A stretch of 64,000 nucleotides of DNA from Candidatus Dojkabacteria bacterium (GTDB taxonomy: Bacteria; Patescibacteriota; Dojkabacteria; GCA-002793355), in assembly GCA_030583825.1 (NCBI GenBank), contig CP129477.1, positions 318,308 to 382,307 on the forward strand, read 5' to 3'. Each line of letters opens with the position of its first letter. Position 1 is the first letter of the stretch. A model generated the notes under the pieces. It ran no database searches and had not been told where the DNA came from. It was given only the letters and a program-made list of their open reading frames with translations. Below, in pieces: positions 6,622 to 57,159 of the stretch. A program made the translations under genes and the position numbers.

Positions 6622-7188
6622 ATGCAGGAAATCGAAGTAAAAATCCTCAACATTGATGTAGAAGCCACCCTTTTGCAACTTCAGCAGCTTGGAGCCACAT
6701 TTGTCGAAGAAAAAAATCTTTCTGCGATTCTCATTGACACTCCCCGACGCGACTTATCAAAAAGAAACGGATCTCTCCGCCTCCGCCAGGAAAATGACAC
6801 CTGTTACTTGACGTTCAAAGCTTTCGGAGGAAAGCAGCAGTTCAAAAACTTGAAAGAAACAGAAATTATTGTTTCAGACTTTCAGCAAACAAAAAATCTT
6901 CTCGCAGCGATCGGCTATTCCAATATTTACCGTTCTTACCAGAAAAAGCGTTTTGAATTTACGCTGGGTAATGCCACAATTTGTATTGATAAGTATATTA
7001 ACGATCTATCGCATATTCCTGTATTTATGGAGATCGAGACACATAGCGAGGCAGACATGGTGACCGCGCTACAAACATTGGGTATTGAGAAATCTCAAGC
7101 AAAACACTACTCACTGAGTGATCTTTTAAGGATGTATAAACCGGTGCCGAAGCCTATAGAGGAAATGGAGCCGTATTCTGATTACTAA
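6622..7188 (+). CDS. CYTH-domain protein (class IV adenylate cyclase / triphosphatase fold)
   Basis: N-terminal EIEVK motif, R-x-R and C-terminal ExE (FMEIE) motifs; leaderless (TATAAT + 7 nt + ATG). Confidence 0.65.
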   Translation: MQEIEVKILNIDVEATLLQLQQLGATFVEEKNLSAILIDTPRRDLSKRNGSLRLRQENDTCYLTFKAFGGKQQFKNLKETEIIVSDFQQTKNLLAAIGYSNIYRSYQKKRFEFTLGNATICIDKYINDLSHIPVFMEIETHSEADMVTALQTLGIEKSQAKHYSLSDLLRMYKPVPKPIEEMEPYSDY

Positions 7189-7195
7189 CGTCATT

Positions 7196-7432
7196 CATCT
7201 TCAAAAAAGGAAGTACTCGGTTGCTTAACGCTCACAAGTTCGCTACAACCTGCGTGCCTTTTCCTCAGATTCATTCCGTTTTAAGTAGTGATTTCTATCC
7301 GCTTTTACTATCAAACGTAGAATTCACCGCCTCATCTTCGCTCCGCGTCAAACGTATAACAGCCTTTTCTTCAGATTCACTCCGTTTTAGTCTGAGACGC
7401 TTATTCACACTCACTCCGTTTTAGGACACCTT
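7196..7432. repeat. intergenic repeat element, copy R1 (roughly 75-nt conserved core plus degenerate CTC(A/G)CTCCGT sub-repeats)
   Basis: 7203-7280 is the near-exact reverse complement of 34990-35065; related copies at 27350, 38300, 49550 and 54975. Confidence 0.8.
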
Positions 7433-8135: not shown

Positions 8136-8561
8136 CTAACCATCAGTCGTAGGTTCAGGATTATTAATCGTTATTTCCGTAACTTGGACGGTGATAGGAG
8201 CTTGCCCTTCGCGGTCTGAATCGGCTTCAAGACTTGTTTCCATCTCGATACCGCGGAGCTTTTCTACTCGTGCTTCACGATTTCCACTGCTTCCCTTTTT
8301 CCCAAACATATCGAACATAACTTCGGCAACTTCTTCAAAGACACTTTGGTTCAACGAATAAATAATATGCTGCTTATCCCGTTGTGTCCTGACCAATTCC
8401 GCAACCCGCAACGTTTGCAAATGATGGGTTAATGTTGGCTTTGTGATATCAAAATGGATAATCATATCGCCCGGAGTCATATCGTTTTCTTTGAGCATTT
8501 TAAGGATTTTGCGACGAATGGGATCTGAGAGTGCTGTGAATACATCTTTTATTTTTGCCAT
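8136..8561 (-). CDS. ArsR/SmtB-family transcriptional regulator (SdpR-like)
   Basis: winged HTH (DPIRRKILKML…LTHHLQTLRVAELV); a palindromic operator overlaps its promoter. Confidence 0.8.
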   Translation of the reverse strand: MAKIKDVFTALSDPIRRKILKMLKENDMTPGDMIIHFDITKPTLTHHLQTLRVAELVRTQRDKQHIIYSLNQSVFEEVAEVMFDMFGKKGSSGNREARVEKLRGIEMETSLEADSDREGQAPITVQVTEITINNPEPTTDG

Positions 8562-8573
8562 GTTTCCGTATTT

Positions 8574-8606
8574 ATTAGATTGTTAGATAGTTATCTAAAT
8601 ATCTAA
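8574..8606. promoter_or_regulatory. palindromic operator-like element ATTAGATTGTTAGATAGTTATCTAAATATCTAAT (nested inverted repeats TTAGATA/TATCTAA)
   Basis: located 13-45 nt upstream of the ArsR start codon; a 23/24-nt match occurs at 28257-28283. Confidence 0.55.
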
Positions 8607-10192: not shown

Positions 10193-11134
10193 GTGGGGAC
10201 AAAAATTCTGAAATCAGCCGCCACACCAAGCGAGTTCCCCAAAGTTGGAGATTGGGTCGCATTTACTCAATATAACTCAGAAAGTGAAGCAGTCATTCAT
10301 TCGGTTCTTCCGCGCAAAACAACTCTTTCTCGCAAAGGTGTTGATCCCAGGCCCGGAGTATCTTCTTCGGTAGAGCAAATTATTGCCACAAATATTGATA
10401 TTATCTGCATTGTGCAGAGCGCTGATCAAAACTTTAATATTCGAAGACTAGAGCGTTACTTAGCAATGGCGCTTGCAGCAAATTGCCAACCCCTCGTTAT
10501 TCTCAACAAAATTGACTTAAACTCACAATGGGAAGATCTCGTACGAAAAATTAAATCCAGACTTACGGTAGATATTCCTATCATCGCAATGAGTGCAAAA
10601 GATTCTCTTGGCAAAGATGAATTGCTAAGCTATTTGAAGCAAGGAACAACTTCGGTATTTGTGGGATCTTCCGGCGTTGGTAAGTCATCTCTTATTAACA
10701 TGCTGCAAGAGGAGGACGTTTTAAAAGTTGGCGAAATTAGTGAAACTCTCGGCAAAGGAAAGCATACGACAACTCATCGCGAGCTATTACAGCTTTCGTC
10801 TGGAGGCATTGTTATTGATACTCCCGGCATGAGAGAGCTTTTTATGTGGGACGCTGACGATGCCGTTGATGAACTCTTTACCCCAATAGTAGAGCTATCG
10901 AAGGCTTGTAAGTTCAAGAATTGCTCGCATACTTCTGAACCTGGCTGTGCTGTTATTGACGCGCTTGAGAATGAAGAGATTGATCCCGACATGTATGAAC
11001 ATTACCTTCAACTAAAAGGGGAACAGCGAAAGTTTTCAAATAAACGAAAGAAAGTTTCACCAGAAAAAGAGAGGCATAAGCGATTTAGCAAGCAAATACG
11101 GCAGGTTGTAAGAGATAAAGAGCGCTGGTATTAG
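10193..11134 (+). CDS. rsgA: ribosome small-subunit-dependent GTPase RsgA (YjeQ); the homologous N-terminal OB domain continues upstream to about nt 10100 with no canonical start codon
   Basis: GTPase motifs VGSSGVGKSSLIN, DTPG, NKIDL; C-terminal zinc finger CKFKNCSHTSEPGC; the upstream in-frame translation GRIIIEERQRYTIATGDSFIYGKVG aligns with the RsgA OB fold. Confidence 0.85.
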   Translation: MGTKILKSAATPSEFPKVGDWVAFTQYNSESEAVIHSVLPRKTTLSRKGVDPRPGVSSSVEQIIATNIDIICIVQSADQNFNIRRLERYLAMALAANCQPLVILNKIDLNSQWEDLVRKIKSRLTVDIPIIAMSAKDSLGKDELLSYLKQGTTSVFVGSSGVGKSSLINMLQEEDVLKVGEISETLGKGKHTTTHRELLQLSSGGIVIDTPGMRELFMWDADDAVDELFTPIVELSKACKFKNCSHTSEPGCAVIDALENEEIDPDMYEHYLQLKGEQRKFSNKRKKVSPEKERHKRFSKQIRQVVRDKERWY

Positions 11135-11278: not shown

Positions 11279-11292
11279 CTATAGGGTATAAT
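11279..11292 (+). promoter_or_regulatory. promoter motif CTATAGGGTATAAT, second copy
   Basis: identical 14-mer to the one at 454-467; followed by an SD-led ORF at 11325. Confidence 0.5.
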
Positions 11293-11324
11293 TCAGCAAT
11301 ATTGGCACATGAAAGGAGCTATTC

Positions 11325-11561
11325 ATGAATACCCCTCGTTACTACGGATTAGACAGTGTGAGTCAACTCCTCCCTGGTGAGGAAGTCGCAATTTTTATGG
11401 CACGTGGACAAGCACCTATTATTGAAATTGTCGTAGCGAGAACAGAATCTTCCGCAACAACGAATTCTGGGCGCGTCCTAACAGATGAAGAAAATGACTA
11501 TTTCACCTGTTTACTCACAGGAAACTATTTCCCTGAGCATGACTCTGCCGCAAGAATTTGA
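11325..11561 (+). CDS. small hypothetical protein (78 aa)
   Basis: good RBS (aaaggag, 8 nt spacer, ATG); dedicated promoter. Confidence 0.45.
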   Translation: MNTPRYYGLDSVSQLLPGEEVAIFMARGQAPIIEIVVARTESSATTNSGRVLTDEENDYFTCLLTGNYFPEHDSAARI

Positions 11562-11675: not shown

Positions 11676-12689
11676 CTAAATCCCCAATGGAGGGATAATT
11701 CCCATCACTGACAATGCTGCGAGCAAGTTAAATGCCGCAAAACAGATAATTATCATTCCTGCCGTCTTAAAAAATAGTCCCGACTGCAATGTTTTCGACA
11801 ACTTTACTGACGCGACGCTTAAAACTGCAAGTGCGGGAAAGGTTCCAAGCGCAAATACCAGCATTATCAAGGCTCCATGTAAAACATTTCCACTTTGTAA
11901 GGCGTAAACCTGCATTGACTGTGTAAATCCACACGGCAAAAAGAATGTGATAATTCCCAATAAAATTGGCATTATCCAGCCGCGCTTGCCTTCAAACGAT
12001 AATACCCATTTCCCCATGAACTTTGGCATTTGTACTTGAGGAAGTGGAAATAGCTCAAGCATATTGATTCCAACGGAAATCATCACAACAAACAAAATAA
12101 CGTCAATGACAAACGTAAGTAGCGGGTTAAGCGTAAATGCAGAGCCAATTAGTCCCATAACTCCGCCAAGAAAGAAAAATCCAACGATTCTGGCAATGTG
12201 AAAAGCTGAAATCGCAGCAACTTTTTGCGTTTTTGCATATTGCGCCGACAACGTAAGCACTAATCCGCCAACGACGGCCATACAAGACGATACCGATGCG
12301 ATGAGTCCAATTCCAAACACAACAGGCAGCGATGGCGTGCTCGTTGTAATCAGTGTAACAAGTCCCATTCTTTGGAGCAAAATAAAAATGAGAACAATAA
12401 CCATTGTGATAGCTCCGGCTTTTATGTAGTCCGTAATATTTACTTCCTGTTTCTGCTGCTTTGTAGATACCGTATATCCGGTATCTTTCAATAGCTCGTT
12501 AAAGTCTTTTGCCAGTGAATCTGCCTTTTCGGGTGAATCCATAGTTACCACAACTTTGTTTGCAGCGAGATTCGCAGACACGTTTTTCACTTTTTTGTGG
12601 GTTTTTAGATGTTTCTCGATAGTTAGTTCACATGCGGCACAATGCATGCCATCAACCGAAAGTTCACAGGTGTATTGAGGTTTTGCCAT
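11676..12689 (-). CDS. heavy-metal-associated (HMA) domain fused to a polytopic membrane permease-like domain
   Basis: N-terminal GMHCAAC metal-binding motif (HMA fold), then about 8 TM helices; leaderless (GGGTATAAT + 6 nt + ATG). Confidence 0.6.
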   Translation of the reverse strand: MAKPQYTCELSVDGMHCAACELTIEKHLKTHKKVKNVSANLAANKVVVTMDSPEKADSLAKDFNELLKDTGYTVSTKQQKQEVNITDYIKAGAITMVIVLIFILLQRMGLVTLITTSTPSLPVVFGIGLIASVSSCMAVVGGLVLTLSAQYAKTQKVAAISAFHIARIVGFFFLGGVMGLIGSAFTLNPLLTFVIDVILFVVMISVGINMLELFPLPQVQMPKFMGKWVLSFEGKRGWIMPILLGIITFFLPCGFTQSMQVYALQSGNVLHGALIMLVFALGTFPALAVLSVASVKLSKTLQSGLFFKTAGMIIICFAAFNLLAALSVMGIIPPLGI

Positions 12690-18166: not shown

Positions 18167-18178
18167 CCGTTTTATGTA

Positions 18179-18215
18179 AGATGGGGAGGGGTATACTCTC
18201 CTCATCTTCTTTTTT
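18179..18215 (+). terminator. rho-independent terminator (10-bp stem with one G-U pair, followed by TCTTTTTT)
   Basis: inverted repeat AGATGGGGAG / CTCCTCATCT followed by a T-run. Confidence 0.5.
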
Positions 18216-22668: not shown

Positions 22669-23526
22669 ATGATGAAAGAATTTGCAGGTGTCACAATTAC
22701 CCATCCTGAACGAGTCATTTTTCCTAAAACAAATATTACCAAGCTAGATATTGCTCAATACTACTCTCAAATTAGTGAAAAGCTGCTTCTGGAACTTATA
22801 GAGCGCCCTGTAAGCCTTGTCAGAAGCCCTGGAGGGCTCCAAAACGGCAAGTTTTATCAGAAGCACCCTTCAGAGGCCTTCCCAAAATATATTGAGCGTA
22901 TAACGATTACAGAGCGTCAGGGAGAGGGTGTGTATATAACCCTAGACGCGCAAAACGACCTCATTTTCCTTTCTAATATTGGGGTGATAGAGTTTCACGC
23001 TTGGTTATCTTCTCTGCCTGATTTAGAAGCTCCCGACCGCATTGTATTTGACTTAGACCCTGCTCCCGATGCTCCTTGGAGCAATGTTATTGACGCAGCA
23101 AAGTATATTCATGATGAATTACAGGAGCATAAACTCTTTTCTTGTATAAAAACTTCCGGGATTAAGGGGCTTCACATTGTTGTTCCTATAAAAAATACAA
23201 CATGGGAGCATTCAAAAGCATTTGCGCGCGGTATTGCCGACCACCTTGCAGAAAAGTATCCAACCAAGTTTACAACGACAATTGCCAAAGACAAGCGCGA
23301 AGGCAAAGTATTCATTGACTACCTACGTAACTCACGAGGAGCAACAAATGTTGCTGCATTTTCACTTCGTACGCACGCCGAAGCAACTATTTCATTTCCA
23401 TTTGCCTGGAAAGATCTTTCTACAGATATCCGTCCGTACATGGTAACAATGAAAAACTACGAAGACTTCACTATTCCTGAAGAGTGGAAGAAACTGTACA
23501 CAGTTTCCCAAAAGCTAATGGATTAG
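22669..23526 (+). CDS. standalone NHEJ polymerase/primase domain (LigD PolDom-like); start may be at the second Met at 22672
   Basis: LigD Pol domain pattern: VTITHPERVIFPK…TKLDIAQYY…FYQKHP…DRIVFDLDP…KTSGIKGLHIVVPI…KVFIDYLRNSRGATNVAAFSLR. Confidence 0.75.
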   Translation: MMKEFAGVTITHPERVIFPKTNITKLDIAQYYSQISEKLLLELIERPVSLVRSPGGLQNGKFYQKHPSEAFPKYIERITITERQGEGVYITLDAQNDLIFLSNIGVIEFHAWLSSLPDLEAPDRIVFDLDPAPDAPWSNVIDAAKYIHDELQEHKLFSCIKTSGIKGLHIVVPIKNTTWEHSKAFARGIADHLAEKYPTKFTTTIAKDKREGKVFIDYLRNSRGATNVAAFSLRTHAEATISFPFAWKDLSTDIRPYMVTMKNYEDFTIPEEWKKLYTVSQKLMD

Positions 23527-27343: not shown

Positions 27344-27349
27344 CACCTC

Positions 27350-27535
27350 GCTCCCATTCGAAAAAAAGAGTACTCGACTTTAAACGTACATAAATGTACT
27401 AAGTCTGCGTGCTTTTTTTCTCATACTCGCTCCGTTTGACGGTGCGAACTATTACTAATAAATGTTCTGTATTAAAAATTTCGCCTCACCTTCGTTCCGT
27501 ATCAAAAATTTCCTACCGATTCACTGTCATTTCTT
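27350..27535. repeat. intergenic repeat element, copy R3
   Basis: shares the blocks AGAGTACTCG, CTGCGTGCTTTTT, CTCGCTCCGT and ATTTCGCCTCACCTTCG(T/C)TCCG with R1, R2 and R4. Confidence 0.7.
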
Positions 27536-27947
27536 AACCCAGCTTTGATGTGATTAATGATTTATCCCAATCCAGTGTAAGTGGTGAAAGGAGTTTCATG
27601 AGCTCAATGCCGGCGACTGTTTCTACTGCTCCGTTCATAAATACGCACGATACTTGTCCAAGGTTTCTGACCAATTGGGAATTTTCCTGCTCGACAACTG
27701 AGAGATCTACAAGAAATGTAAATGCGGAAACTGTCCGTTCATCTGCAAGTACCATTGTGCTCAAAAAGCCGTCCGTAAATCTAAATTGTGGCAACAACGT
27801 TTTTGGAAATGCAATCCCTAACGAAAATCCGGTATCAAGCAGTAAGTCATACTTTTTCTTGTGAGGAAGCACGAGTTCTCCTGACAAACGTGGGTGATCA
27901 GCCTGGCCAAAACTAAGTGATAGTGACGAAAATGTGAGCGTATTCAT
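27534..27947 (-). CDS. retropepsin-like (clan AA) aspartic protease domain protein
   Basis: LLLDTGFS motif resembling the D-T/S-G-A active site; 137 aa. Confidence 0.45.
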   Translation of the reverse strand: MNTLTFSSLSLSFGQADHPRLSGELVLPHKKKYDLLLDTGFSLGIAFPKTLLPQFRFTDGFLSTMVLADERTVSAFTFLVDLSVVEQENSQLVRNLGQVSCVFMNGAVETVAGIELMKLLSPLTLDWDKSLITSKLG

Positions 27948-28175: not shown

Positions 28176-28256
28176 ATTCTCAGTATAGCACTTTTCTCCG
28201 TTTGTGACTTGCAAATGACTCGGTAAAGATACGATTTAGCAGTCTTGGGGGACAAT

Positions 28257-28283
28257 AATTAGATAAGTATCTAACAATCTAAC
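28257..28283. promoter_or_regulatory. second copy of the palindromic operator-like element (TTAGATAAGTATCTAACAATCTAAC)
   Basis: 23/24-nt identity (in reverse complement) to the element at 8574-8606 upstream of the ArsR gene. Confidence 0.5.
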
Positions 28284-34146: not shown

Positions 34147-34851
34147 ATGCCCGCAAAAACTGAGTCTATAGAAAAGCTCGTAAAAAGCCTTATTTCAAAG
34201 AGTGAGCCGACGAAACATCACTCAATTAGAGCGTTACAACCGGCAGTTATAGACACGCTCCGTCCAACTATTATTCTACTCTTTGGGCCATCTACTGTAG
34301 GAAAAGACACAATTATTTTGAAAGCCCTTGATTTACCGTTTGTAAGCTTAGTGCAGACAGCAACGTCCCGGCCTCGCCGGCCCGATGAAGATGAGTCTGC
34401 ATATCTATGGCTGAGACAACCTCATAAAAAAGAAACTATCCAGCATTACATTCACTCGATGGTAACAACGTATTCCCTCGTAGAATGGGATATTCATAAC
34501 CGTTATCTTTACGGAATTCCTCGAAAAAACATTGAAAAAAGCCTTTCTTCCGGTGTTGCTATTATAAAAACGAACTTTCATGGAGCAAAAGTGCTAAAAA
34601 CTGTATTAATCTACACAGCAAACGTGCTTGTAATGGCTGTTCACCCGGAATCATGGAAAGAGCTTGAAGAGCGAATCGTACAGATGAGAAAGCGACCAAA
34701 GCTGCGAATACACGAAGCAATTCAATCTATTGAAGCAGCAAGTGAAATTGCCGACTATTTGGTTATCAATTCGTTTAAAGAAGGAAAATTGGAGCAAGTA
34801 CAAAACGACATTCTTCAATTTTTCACCGAGATTTACGAAAAACGGAGCTAA
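34147..34851 (+). CDS. guanylate-kinase-like P-loop protein
   Basis: GPSTVGKDT P-loop and TSRPRRPDEDESAY (compare GK TTRxPRxGExDGxDY); leaderless TATACT + 6 nt + ATG. Confidence 0.5.
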   Translation: MPAKTESIEKLVKSLISKSEPTKHHSIRALQPAVIDTLRPTIILLFGPSTVGKDTIILKALDLPFVSLVQTATSRPRRPDEDESAYLWLRQPHKKETIQHYIHSMVTTYSLVEWDIHNRYLYGIPRKNIEKSLSSGVAIIKTNFHGAKVLKTVLIYTANVLVMAVHPESWKELEERIVQMRKRPKLRIHEAIQSIEAASEIADYLVINSFKEGKLEQVQNDILQFFTEIYEKRS

Positions 34852-34904
34852 TTTCTTAGTGGCTCTCAATTCTTGGGCTATTTCTCGCTATGTCTATGCG
34901 GAGC

Positions 34905-35125
34905 GATTAAAAAGTGAAAGGTACAACATATGAGTTTACCGGACACTCATGCGGAGCGAAGATTAGGCGAAATCCCAGATACGGAGTGAGGCTGAAGAAA
35001 AGGCACGCAGGTTGTAGCGAACTTGTGAGCGCCAAGCAACCGAGTACTTCCTTTTCTGAAGATGAACGAGGTTTTCGTCATACACAAAGACTTTTGTGTA
35101 CTCCTCAATAAGACCAAACCTTGCA
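34905..35125. repeat. intergenic repeat element, copy R2 (inverted relative to R1)
   Basis: 34990-35065 is the reverse complement of 7203-7280 with more than 90% identity; the small ORFs inside are repeat-derived. Confidence 0.8.
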
Positions 35126-35199
35126 ACACAATAGCAAATCGTTGCTATTGGTCGCTGTGGTTCCGCTTTTTCATTAAAACATTTACTCTTGGGAAAAGC

Positions 35200-38182: not shown

Positions 38183-38299
38183 AATTTTTGTAATACACTA
38201 TAGTGAAATATTAGAACACATGTATTATACCACTTTTAGCCTTACTTTTCTACTATGAATCACCTCCTTATCGTAAGTTTTGAGCATATAGTACGATTG

Positions 38300-38480
38300 C
38301 CGGAATACTTCACCTACCTAAAAACAGAGCGAAGTTACAGAAAAGGTACACTCTTTAAAATGGAGCGACCATGAGAAAAAAGCACGCTATAGAAACAGAG
38401 CGAAGGTGAGGCGAAATCCCAAAGTGTTTGTAGGACATATGTAGCTATCAAACCTTTGGACATTGAGACGAACCTGAGCG
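38300..38480. repeat. intergenic repeat element, copy R4 (same orientation as R2)
   Basis: contains ACAGAGCGAAGGTGAGGCGAAATCCCA, matching 34950-34985 and the reverse complement of 27470-27495. Confidence 0.7.
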
Positions 38481-38487
38481 ATGTTCA

Positions 38488-41474: not shown

Positions 41475-42569
41475 TTAAAACGTTAATTTACTCAAAAATT
41501 CTTCGATGATAGCTCGGGATAAGCCAGAAGCTTCTTCCATTGGCAAATGTCCGACATCGGGAATAACGTAGATTTCCGATTGAGGAACTTTTTCAGCAAA
41601 GGCAATCCCACGCTCAACGGGAATAATATAATCTTCTTTACCCCAAATGATAATTGTAGGAGTTTCAGACGTCGCGAGTGGTTCAGTAGAAACAACCGAC
41701 GACGATGTATCGCGAGCGATAGCGAGCGTTCCAATATCCCAATCTCGCACCTTTTGAGAAAGCATTGAGCGAGTAACTAGTTCATCTGTAACAATTTCAT
41801 CTTTATATACCGCGTTTTTAAGCCGTTCACGAACATTATCAGAAGTATATGCACGTTGCAGATACTGCCTTTTAATACGATATGTGTACATATTCGTTCC
41901 TTTTATAGCGCTTTTTGTAGAAGTGTGCGATGAAAAAGATTCATCTCCCGATAAAAATACGTATCCTGCGGCCAATTCACCATACTGATGTGAATACTCC
42001 AGTATAACCGGCGTGCTTGTTCCATGAGCAATAAATGCCGCAGAGTTTACTTGCTTCTCTTTCAAAACCTCTGAAACAAGCGTTGCTTGCCCTTTATATG
42101 AATGATCAAATGCCCAATCTCGCTGAGAAAATCCACTTCCTTTAAGGTCAATTGCAATTGTTCTGTATCCGCTTTCTGCAAAGACTTCCATGTGCGGACG
42201 CCATATTTCGGCACTTAACTCAAATTCAGAAATAAATACTAATACTTTTTCTGACTCCGGATTAAGATCTATCACATACGTTATATACCCATCTATCGTT
42301 AGAAACTCGCCTCTTTTCTCTAAAGTAGATGCTACTTCCTGTGGCGAAGATAAGCTTCTTTCCATTGGCAAAGGCATGAGAAATGGGAACGATATGATCA
42401 CTAACAATATGAAAATCACAATAACAACAATAATTCCAAGCGTACTTTTCCTTCTCAGTGGAGGGATATTCTTCTCCGACACCTTCGACACAATACTATC
42501 TTTCGCGGAAGTATCAAGTATCTGTTTTGATTTATCTTTCTCTTTATCGCTCATTTTCAGCCAATCCAC
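41475..42569 (-). CDS. membrane-anchored alpha/beta-hydrolase-fold protein
   Basis: N-terminal TM helix; hydrolase-like core with a non-canonical nucleophile elbow HGTSTP. Confidence 0.45.
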   Translation of the reverse strand: MDWLKMSDKEKDKSKQILDTSAKDSIVSKVSEKNIPPLRRKSTLGIIVVIVIFILLVIISFPFLMPLPMERSLSSPQEVASTLEKRGEFLTIDGYITYVIDLNPESEKVLVFISEFELSAEIWRPHMEVFAESGYRTIAIDLKGSGFSQRDWAFDHSYKGQATLVSEVLKEKQVNSAAFIAHGTSTPVILEYSHQYGELAAGYVFLSGDESFSSHTSTKSAIKGTNMYTYRIKRQYLQRAYTSDNVRERLKNAVYKDEIVTDELVTRSMLSQKVRDWDIGTLAIARDTSSSVVSTEPLATSETPTIIIWGKEDYIIPVERGIAFAEKVPQSEIYVIPDVGHLPMEEASGLSRAIIEEFLSKLTF

Positions 42570-49445: not shown

Positions 49446-49549
49446 AGGATTATTCTGTCTAATAATAGTGTGCAATTAGCAGTCTCAATAAAAAACAGGG
49501 GCTGAATTTAACAGGTTTTATAGGAAAATTGTAAACACTTCACTTATAA

Positions 49550-49600
49550 TCTCAAAAAGAAAAACTTTTTTCGATTACTCGCTCCGTACTATTCGCGCGA
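49550..49600. repeat. short copy (R5) of the intergenic repeat family
   Basis: ACTCGCTCCGTACT resembles the CTCGCTCCGT units of R1 and R3. Confidence 0.4.
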
Positions 49601-54953: not shown

Positions 54954-54996
54954 TCACGTCGAACGCTGAATTCACAGAGTGAGTACTCGGTTCTTA

Positions 54997-55023
54997 AAAG
55001 AGGGGGTAACTCCCCTCTTTTTT
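54997..55023 (+). terminator. rho-independent terminator of groEL (AAAGAGGGG-gtaact-CCCCTCTTT followed by TTT)
   Basis: perfect 9-bp GC-rich stem, 6-nt loop, T-run. Confidence 0.75.
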
Positions 55024-55042
55024 ATGCACGGTATAATCTCCT

Positions 55043-56966: not shown

Positions 56967-57159
56967 ATGGATTTTATTATCTTAGTTGTGAATATATCGG
57001 TTTTCCCTATAGTGAATGCTCTAGTATAGCGCTTTTCATGAACGCTGTGTATATCTCTTGGAGAATGGGCAAAATCAGATAAAAAAGGTGAAAAAGTTAC
57101 CTAAAAATGGTATAATACGTGTATTGCTCTTTGCTAGCATGTTCCCTGAAGGATATTTT

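Follow-up and report, generated by a model that had tools for sequence, protein, structure and literature searches.

A lineage-specific family of palindromic repeats at gene 3' ends in a CPR bacterium: a putative non-autonomous mobile element

Six intergenic regions and the copies of the repeat

The window, i.e. the whole analyzed stretch of 64 kb, was assigned by exact protein look-ups to the MAG of a Candidatus Dojkabacteria bacterium (CPR/Patescibacteria), in which it is part of a contig of 1,090,595 bp that also encodes WKZ30467.1, WKZ30510.1 and WKZ30514.1. It has a GC content of 40.8% and comprises, based on an approximate gene map, 59 gene junctions, 14 of which are convergent, 13 divergent and 32 tandem. 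Copies or possible copies of one repeat family were located in six of its intergenic regions and are designated A to F. Element A (7187..7423, plus strand) fills the spacer between the convergent CYTH and SdpI-like genes from stop codon to stop codon. It carries a left unit at 7191-7199, which is followed by a palindromic core (~7199-7268) with the box AGTACTCG at 7212-7219 and the box CTGCGTGC at 7250-7257, and by further units at 7271-7279, 7338-7346, 7377-7385 and 7411-7419, all of them on the plus strand. In addition, a 28-nt module, GCCTTTTCYTCAGATTCAYTCCGTTTTA, is duplicated within A (7256-7283 and 7362-7389).

Element B (34842..35073, minus strand) is 90% identical to A over 34981-35073. 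Its palindromic core lies at ~34992-35061 with boxes at 35041-35048 and 35003-35010, its units at 34981-34989, 34951-34959 and 34898-34906, and a further module termed U2, ATTTCGCCTAATCTTCG, at 34957-34973, again all on the element strand (minus). The unit-like sequence at its end (34842-34850) is native C-terminal coding sequence plus the stop codon of the guanylate-kinase-like gene. Between B and the stop codon of the MacB permease on the other side, a unique segment of 126 nt was found (35074..35199, minus strand), which comprises two small hairpins, has no second copy in the window and is absent from the related genome described below.

Element C (27344..27533, plus strand) is a diverged full copy, the full-copy part of which covers 27344-27446. 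The left unit CTCGCTCC (27347-27354) and the core (~27356-27424, boxes at 27369-27376 and 27405-27412) are followed by the right unit CTCGCTCCGT at 27426-27435, a U2 module at 27478-27494 and a further unit at 27492-27500, all on the plus strand. Element D (38313..38485, minus strand) is degenerate and rearranged. Its left unit lies at ~38472-38480, and in the same place as the hairpin of A, B and C it carries a different one, CCAAAGGTTTG...CAAACACTTTGG (38418-38460), with a loop related to that of C. The U2 module (38401-38417), a solo right-arm box GCGTGCTTTTT (38377-38387) and units at 38395-38403, 38360-38368 and 38324-38332, which recur with a period of 35-36 nt, are likewise found on the minus strand.

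The remaining two regions contain shorter sequences. E (49536..49597, plus strand) is a possible hairpin-less fragment in a convergent spacer beside rpoD and consists of a unit-like sequence, AAAAAGAAAAACTTTTTT, and then TCGCTCCGT at 49579-49587. F (54970..54993, plus strand) is a truncated left arm, TTCACAGAGTGAGTACTCGGTTC, situated between the groEL stop codon and the canonical, conserved groEL terminator (~54999-55025).

As proposed in an earlier note on this DNA, all copies are intergenic and occur in both orientations (A, C, E and F on the plus strand, B and D on the minus strand). Four of them are located at convergent junctions (A, B, C, E), two at tandem junctions (D, F) and none at a divergent one. 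Apart from one spacer holding a small gene, the copies in the six regions represent the longest convergent spacers in the window. The orientation relative to the flanking genes is informative at the two tandem sites only, where the copies are co-oriented with the genes (n=2); the convergent geometry is uninformative. The neighbouring genes (CYTH, SdpI-like, MacB/FtsX permease, guanylate-kinase-like, CHASE2 cyclase, HlyD, rpoD, groEL) are mutually unrelated housekeeping, transport or signalling genes. Since the genes abut or overlap (gap <=1 nt) in half of the window's convergent pairs, a spacer element is not required at convergent junctions.

Regarding the coding capacity, the only ORFs inside the elements are repeat-derived ones of 67 aa and 60 aa, and the former (7221-7424) showed no homologue among 5.8 billion predicted proteins. 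A Pfam search revealed no transposase, integrase or HUH domain in the window or in its flanks of ~12 kb. Both findings agree with the previous description of short repeat-derived ORFs and an absent transposase.

The starting point for the family had been the observation that 7203-7280 is the reverse complement of ~34990-35065. This was borne out by repeat finding, which returned an inverted match of 93 nt between 7187-7279(+) and 34981-35073(-) with 90% identity, and by blastn (90.3% identity, E=1e-26). Near-identity of this kind is restricted to A and B, and E scores no better than a coding-region false positive, as would fit a segmental duplication of A and B accompanied by chance matches of low complexity. 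However, C carries both 8-nt boxes at the right spacing, since the pattern AGTACTCG-N20-50-CTGCGTGC gave three matches in a scan of the window compared to 0.00 expected, and shows compensatory changes in the stem. By blastn, C is 63% identical to A across ~160 nt (E=8e-7). Furthermore, the 17-mer ATTTCGCCTMAYCTTCG from U2 is common to B, C and D (three matches vs 0.05 expected), and the 11-mer AGTACTCGGTT occurs identically in A, B and, downstream of groEL, in F (three vs 0.01 expected), while D shares 69 nt with C at 71% identity. The relationship claimed for the copies near 27350-27535 and 38300-38480 and for the fragment near 54975-54995 is thus supported, and with it a family of more than two copies. 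A segmental duplication with chance similarity elsewhere is extremely improbable and effectively refuted.

A covariance model calculated from A, B and C and run on the 64-kb window gave three strong matches, i.e. the training copies, and one significant match, which was D (21.9 bits, E=0.013). E reached 17.3 bits (E=0.14) and is individually weak; a match in coding sequence at 42212, which is probably spurious, scored at the same level. Hence the proposed number of six regions holds for the three full copies A, B and C, in which alone the full core is present, the degenerate copy D and the truncated copy F, while 49536-49597 (E) is doubtful. Together with the centre-deleted stretches at 7334-7396 and 38313-38372, full, degenerate and truncated copies form a decay series, which is typical of mobile families.

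The sub-repeat described before as CTC(A/G)CTCCGT also proved to be part of the family. Allowing up to one mismatch, TCRCTCCGT was found 33 times in the window (16.2 +/- 4.5 expected). The six regions account for almost half of these matches (16 of 33, including 14 on the element strand), while the 17 matches outside correspond to the chance expectation. The examined DNA amounts to ~76 kb (the 64-kb window plus ~12 kb of flanks) of a genome of 1.09 Mb, and no further copies appeared when Logan contigs were used to extend the window by 9.5 kb on its left and 2.7 kb on its right side.

Architecture and folding of the element

The copies follow a common layout, in which a unit of approximately TCRCTCC is followed by an A-run, a long imperfect palindrome, a T-run, the unit TCRCTCCGT and then more units. 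In the alignment of A, B and C, the left unit reads yTCryTCm and is followed by TTCr and the A-run, while the palindrome is followed by the T-run, yTCA and the right unit yTCRCTCCGT. The core comprises 65-75 nt and the whole inserts 190-348 nt. The basal arms of the palindrome are conserved in sequence (rAGTAC-U-CGryU / ArryC-U-G-C-GUGCy), and A, B and C agree at every position of the two 8-nt boxes (100% identity), although A and C are only 63% identical overall. The apical 18-22 nt of A and B are unrelated to those of C, and the inner stem is formed by GACTT/AAGTC in C compared to GGTTG/CAACC in A and B. As a separate explanation for AGTACT, avoidance of a restriction site was discarded, because the hexamer is not avoided (23 matches vs 9.4 expected). 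A template/variable repeat pair of a diversity-generating retroelement (DGR) was likewise dismissed, as the positions that differ between A and B are not confined to adenines and a reverse transcriptase is absent.

Of the pairs in the structural model, 95% form on the alignment of A, B and C. Two inner-stem pairs show compensatory changes (GC to AU and UA to CG), while the bulges and one U.G pair are invariant. The covariation score was reached by 53 of 500 shuffles, the three copies corresponding effectively to two independent sequences, and the covariation evidence for the hairpin is therefore thin and suggestive only. The folding-energy z-scores relative to shuffled sequence were -0.03 for A, -0.78 for B and -3.06 for C, i.e. 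for A and B the hairpin is not more stable than expected from shuffling. The two strands form it about equally well, and a strand asymmetry, which was sought as a sign of a function at the RNA level, was not found. Equal folding on both strands is expected of an inverted repeat at the DNA level. A search against Rfam gave no match at the gathering thresholds and, at E<=5, only an unrelated chance match inside groEL. Taken together with the relatives that lack the element, these results lend little support to the structured regulatory RNA that had been considered in the earlier note; the MITE/REP-like reading offered beside it is the better one.

The position and the borders of the hairpin also recall a transcription terminator. 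In A and C the hairpin starts 0-20 nt past the upstream stop codon, the stem is followed by a T-run of 4-7, and the A-run provides a T-run on the opposite strand. The element strand is C-rich and G-poor in the tails (C/G of 1.3-1.9), and the accumulation at convergent 3' ends (four of six copies, none at divergent junctions) has a precedent in SPRITE, which is a terminator-like repeat with the same positional bias (PMC3184786). These features could be explained by a portable SPRITE-like terminator or 3'-UTR module that is kept for insulating convergent genes. Transcripts arriving from the converging genes in both directions would be terminated or stabilised by the hairpin and its A- and T-runs, and the C-rich, G-poor UCGCUCCGU tail would be a putative Rho-loading or RNA-binding-protein site.

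However, a simple intrinsic-terminator scan, which called canonical terminators elsewhere, did not call the element hairpins, and these do not combine a short GC-rich stem with a loop of 3-8 nt and a U-tract. Short, GC-rich hairpins with tight loops characterise the native terminators of the genome, as seen for groEL and at 18178-18208, while A and B are not stabilised compared to shuffled sequence, and the invariant mismatched boxes are not a requirement of a terminator. Moreover, the same sites overlap or abut in relatives, as do half of the convergent pairs in the window. As the primary explanation, a terminator or insulator module is therefore disfavoured and appears unlikely, while such a role is possible as a by-product.

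The invariant mismatches point in another direction as well. In all copies, the imperfect hairpin is conserved together with its bulge and U.G pair, and a short motif is found at a fixed distance on both sides, since the distance from the left to the right unit across the hairpin is 77-80 nt in the four copies A, B, C and D. This would be consistent with an element that derives from REP/REPIN or IS200/IS605 sequences (PATE-like) and is mobilised in single-stranded form. A HUH Y1 transposase (RAYT/TnpA) would use the imperfect hairpin for recognition and the conserved motif beside it as the cleavage site. Y1 systems such as IS200/IS605 and REP/RAYT are not expected to leave a clear target-site duplication (TSD), and a clear TSD is absent here. 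Against this origin, the hairpin has two to three times the length of a REP and lacks a GTAG-type head, the copies are not arranged in inverted REP doublets, and a protein of the Y1_Tnp type is absent from the window. The orientation of the copies is mixed within 64 kb, which indicates no bias towards one replication strand. A single-strand mechanism of the Y1/RAYT or IS200/605 type is a live alternative, if one of low probability.

The trailing units that follow the right unit are on the same strand and 30-67 nt apart. Several periods of 34-39 nt, which were matched by the covariance model at 7334-7396, 38313-38372 and 49536-49597, resemble a centre-deleted element consisting of unit, A-run, T-run and unit, and the best-conserved part of each period is a head of 9-11 nt. 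A CRISPR array was considered for this arrangement and rejected, because only the 9-11-nt head is repeated, the periods vary from 30 to 80 nt, the hairpin core and U2 as would-be spacers are shared between loci, and TRF finds none. As 14 units of the same strand are concentrated in ~0.9 kb of element DNA and the units occur at chance level elsewhere, the arrays of TCGCTCCGT direct repeats with a spacing of 30-80 nt could themselves be the functional part. In that case they would be putative sites for a DNA- or RNA-binding protein and could serve as an insulator, as a nucleoid site or, in 3' UTRs, as a protein sponge, and the hairpin would be accessory; the conservation of the head in every period would fit. 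On the other side, the spacing is irregular (30-67 nt), one unit is native coding sequence of a neighbouring gene, and the arrays come without a candidate binding protein and without conservation in relatives. This makes an array of binding sites very improbable as the explanation for the family.

Empty sites in relatives and distribution of the family

The nearest relative is represented by contig 32089 of Logan SRR13020431, corresponding to JGI Ga0394881_0005441. Compared to the proteins of the window, its CYTH protein shows 85% and its MacB protein 67% amino acid identity, while rpoD and groEL fall into the same 90% clusters. The gene order is the same around all six sites, and the element is missing at each of them (6/6). 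The spacer between the CYTH and SdpI-like genes (site A) comprises 25 nt in the relative compared to 232 nt in the window, and that between MacB and the guanylate-kinase-like gene (site B) 2 nt compared to 348 nt. At site C, the two convergent genes overlap by 8 nt in the relative and are 190 nt apart in the window, where the insert replaces the last residues of one of the two proteins (KLSVM* to KLG*) and supplies its stop codon. The distance from the CHASE2 cyclase to HlyD (site D) is 99 nt in the relative and 305 nt in the window, and the rpoD junction (site E) comprises 49 nt and 200 nt, respectively. Downstream of groEL (site F), the terminator is conserved in the relative, while the left-arm fragment is present in the window only. 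A second, more distant relative (SRR10663361) is also empty, with 27 nt at site B and 62 nt at site E, and the covariance model from A, B and C gave nothing above 13 bits in ~96 kb of relatives. The presence of the same genes without the element also speaks against attC sites of an integron, which were considered and rejected, as the genes are not cassettes.

Filled and empty sites between related genomes, as known for MITEs, suggest that the element is mobile. This is deduced from a relative that is 67-85% identical in the flanking proteins, and loss in the relatives is a less probable origin of the empty sites. Among same-species assemblies, no polymorphism of filled and empty sites was seen. 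No same-species contig showed an empty site at A, B or C; the contigs, which stem from independent assemblies of several runs, either carry the element unchanged or break inside it. A and B have an exact repeat of 35 nt in common, inside which four of the short-read contigs end at 7258 and five at 35026; this explains the fragmentation of short-read assemblies of the species at these points. In a strain of 99% identity, element A is present with an A-run that is one base shorter.

A comparison of the 8-mers to the left and to the right of the palindrome showed 8 of 8 identical positions for C (CTCGCTCC), 6 of 8 for both A and D and 5 of 8 for B. Between A and B, the inner ~70 nt are 94% identical, the flanking units only ~75%. 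In A, the variant TCATTC is present on both flanks and resembles the native TCATTTCA of the relative at that spot. The contrast in identity between inner core and flanks, the matching 8-mers and the TCATTC of A fit a duplicated preferred target of the TCRCTCC type. Since all 8-mers fit one consensus, the flanking repeats may, however, be part of the element instead of target-site duplications. At site C, TAAC flanks the insert as a whole on both sides, and the relative has a single copy of it.

Beyond the relatives, the box pattern AGTACTCG-N20-50-CTGCGTGCYTTTT was scanned in GTDB species genomes (4 matches) and JGI metagenomes (11 matches), numbers which are compatible with chance. The matching sequences are unrelated, mostly GC-rich contigs without units. 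One of them, L012, was inspected as a distant copy and rejected, since the complementarity of its inner stem is fortuitous and the sequence, which lacks units, is apparently coding. No match to the pattern was obtained in IMG/VR, and blastn against phage and plasmid collections gave none to the element. The proposed restriction of the family to this lineage was thereby substantiated: all six orthologous sites and ~96 kb of relatives lack it, and the searches of GTDB, JGI, IMG/VR, phages and plasmids recovered no copy. A full-text search of the literature yielded no description of REP- or MITE-type repeats in CPR/Patescibacteria.

Interpretation and comparison with known systems

Altogether, the family is best read as a lineage-specific, non-autonomous, palindromic mobile DNA element that lands at gene 3' ends, a reading to which we assign a probability of roughly 55%. 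The MITE type fits because of the conserved arms around a free centre, the lack of coding sequence, the dispersal, the decay series, the lineage restriction and the empty sites at all six positions. The mobile part would be the imperfect palindrome of 65-75 nt, the centre of which is free to vary, while the conserved arms (TTCr-A-run-rAGTACTCGryT ... ArryCTGCGTGCy-T-run-yTCA) would act as terminal inverted repeats for a transposase encoded elsewhere in the genome. Landing is presumed to take place at gene 3' ends, beside or within a TCRCTCC(GT)-like sequence, which would then border the palindrome on both sides either as a duplicated preferred target or as part of the element. The trailing hairpin-less units of 30-40 nt could have arisen when the element inserted repeatedly next to older copies and the palindrome centres were then lost by slippage, and the hairpin with its A-run and T-run could serve as an incidental weak bidirectional terminator. 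As a net effect, spacers of 0-99 nt at convergent or tandem gene ends now measure 190-348 nt, and in some cases the adjoining gene has acquired a new stop codon or C-terminus. The best reading of this difference is a recent expansion of gene-end intergenic spacers by the element.

A slim chance is given to a less conventional origin, for which two versions were considered. The family could be a domesticated portable module for insulating 3' ends, in which the hairpin and the C-rich UCGCUCCGU array would recruit Rho, a KH/S1-type protein or a nucleoid protein. Alternatively, it could reflect a self-targeting, array-building transposition of an undescribed type; the units would then be both target and footprint, and new copies would insert beside old ones.

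The genomes of CPR/Patescibacteria are small (~1 Mb) and tightly packed, and in the relative SRR13020431 several of the gene pairs discussed here abut or overlap. In this context, the family is mildly notable for its place in a streamlined CPR genome and for the visible expansion of spacers which in the relative are close to zero. An inflation of spacers by ~150-350 nt at five sites in 64 kb would mean that reduced genomes still host active selfish DNA. The repeat may also be used as a marker at the level of strain and lineage. If the hairpin and the unit array do terminate or insulate transcription, this would exemplify how a mobile element introduces regulatory sequence into an unculturable organism. 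As it stands, the element type is routine and the mobilising enzyme putative.

Among known systems, the family is a new one of an ordinary kind, similar to MITE, REP and SPRITE. SPRITE, likened here by description, is likewise small, dispersed and non-coding and centres on a hairpin with a T-run, and its placement is alike, as convergent junctions hold four of the six copies while making up only 14 of the 59 junctions, and the 13 divergent ones hold none. In contrast to SPRITE, the present element has a long hairpin, which includes a large variable centre and does not resemble a terminator in a simple scan, arrays of direct units trail behind it, and the host is a CPR bacterium and not a firmicute. 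Canonical bidirectional intrinsic terminators are comparable in their succession of A-run, hairpin and T-run between convergent genes, but the present family has a stem that is not GC-rich, an apical region of 18-22 nt and boxes with a conserved sequence.

The BOX elements of S. pneumoniae (boxA-boxB(n)-boxC) are likewise modular, non-autonomous and intergenic, with one module present once and another variably tandem-repeated. The module sequences are unrelated, however, and the repeated module of the present family has a period of 30-40 nt with a conserved head of 9-11 nt. REP/BIME and REPIN-RAYT sequences of E. coli and Pseudomonas resemble it as extragenic imperfect palindromes with conserved stem mismatches, which form mosaic arrays at gene 3' ends. 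REPs, though, are shorter (20-40 nt), have a GTAG-like head and are usually paired in inverted orientation, together with an associated RAYT gene, none of which was seen in the window; instead, a palindrome of 65-75 nt without a GTAG head occurs once per locus and is followed by direct-repeat tails.

Of the earlier designation as MITE/REP-like, the MITE part is favoured by the empty sites and by conserved arms around a variable centre. With the MITEs (Correia/NEMIS of Neisseria, RUP, ERIC, Nezha), the family shares a size below 250 nt without a real ORF, a long hairpin with inverted arms around a variable, non-coding core (in A, B and C, with imperfect arms), dispersal in intergenic DNA and filled versus empty sites between relatives. 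It differs from them in flanking repeats that share a consensus across copies, in the solo units that follow, and in having neither a clear TSD nor a known parent IS.

Insert boundary at site C and surroundings of element B

In the nearest syntenic relative (Logan SRR13020431 contig 32089), the convergent gene pair at site C shows an 8-nt overlap (TTACATAA; 18300-18330 of the relative's sequence L021), whereas in the window the copy C insert (27344-27533(+)) keeps both genes apart. The tetranucleotide TAAC was found at both ends of the whole insert, compared to a single copy in the relative. For the gene 27534-27947(-), the stop codon comes from the insert boundary, and the encoded 137-aa protein ends in ...KLG* in the window compared to ...KLSVM* in the relative.

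At element B (34842-35073(-)), the repeat copy is separated from the stop codon of MacB by a 126-nt segment (35074-35199). This segment, which comprises two small hairpins (CAATAGCAA...TTGCTATTG and ACACAAAAG...CTTTGTGT), occurred only once within the window and showed no counterpart in the relative.

Short motifs

The left-arm box, one of the two conserved 8-nt pieces of the repeat family's palindrome, contains the ScaI-type palindrome AGTACT. In the whole window this hexamer occurred 23 times, compared to 9.4 +/- 2.6 expected from dinucleotide shuffles, and only 4 of the 23 occurrences belong to the repeat family, too few to account for the excess.

A 28-nt sequence, TTAGATTGTTAGATAGTTATCTAAATAT, with the palindrome TTAGATAnnTATCTAA inside it, was found in two inverted copies of 93% identity. 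One copy (8575-8602) is located immediately upstream of an ArsR-family HTH gene (8136-8561), and the other (28255-28282) lies within the 358-nt spacer upstream of the gene 27534-27947. The pair looks like a common operator for the ArsR-family repressor.

Two pairs of near-identical 25-mers (454-478 and 11279-11303; 38215-38239 and 57101-57125), with the sequences CTATAGGGTATAAT... and CTAAAAnTGGTATAATACrTGT, each comprise an extended -10 box at the centre. This suggests strongly conserved promoter cores with unrelated genes downstream.

Further coding sequences

The Logan contig that extends the window rightward terminates, about 2.7 kb beyond the window, in repetitive coding sequence rich in histidine (L025 1-90; CACACATGAACATCA... 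/ CATGAGCACGATCATG); this is a further assembly break-point and has no relation to the repeat family.

Within the window, a 78-aa ORF (11325-11561(+)) with a good promoter and the Shine-Dalgarno sequence AAAGGAG takes up most of the spacer between the genes 10193-11134 and 11676-12689, which measures 541 nt on an approximate gene map limited to ORFs of at least 90 aa. Furthermore, this small CPR genome codes for a stand-alone LigD primase-polymerase-domain protein (22669-23526(+); Pfam PF21686, E=1e-78).
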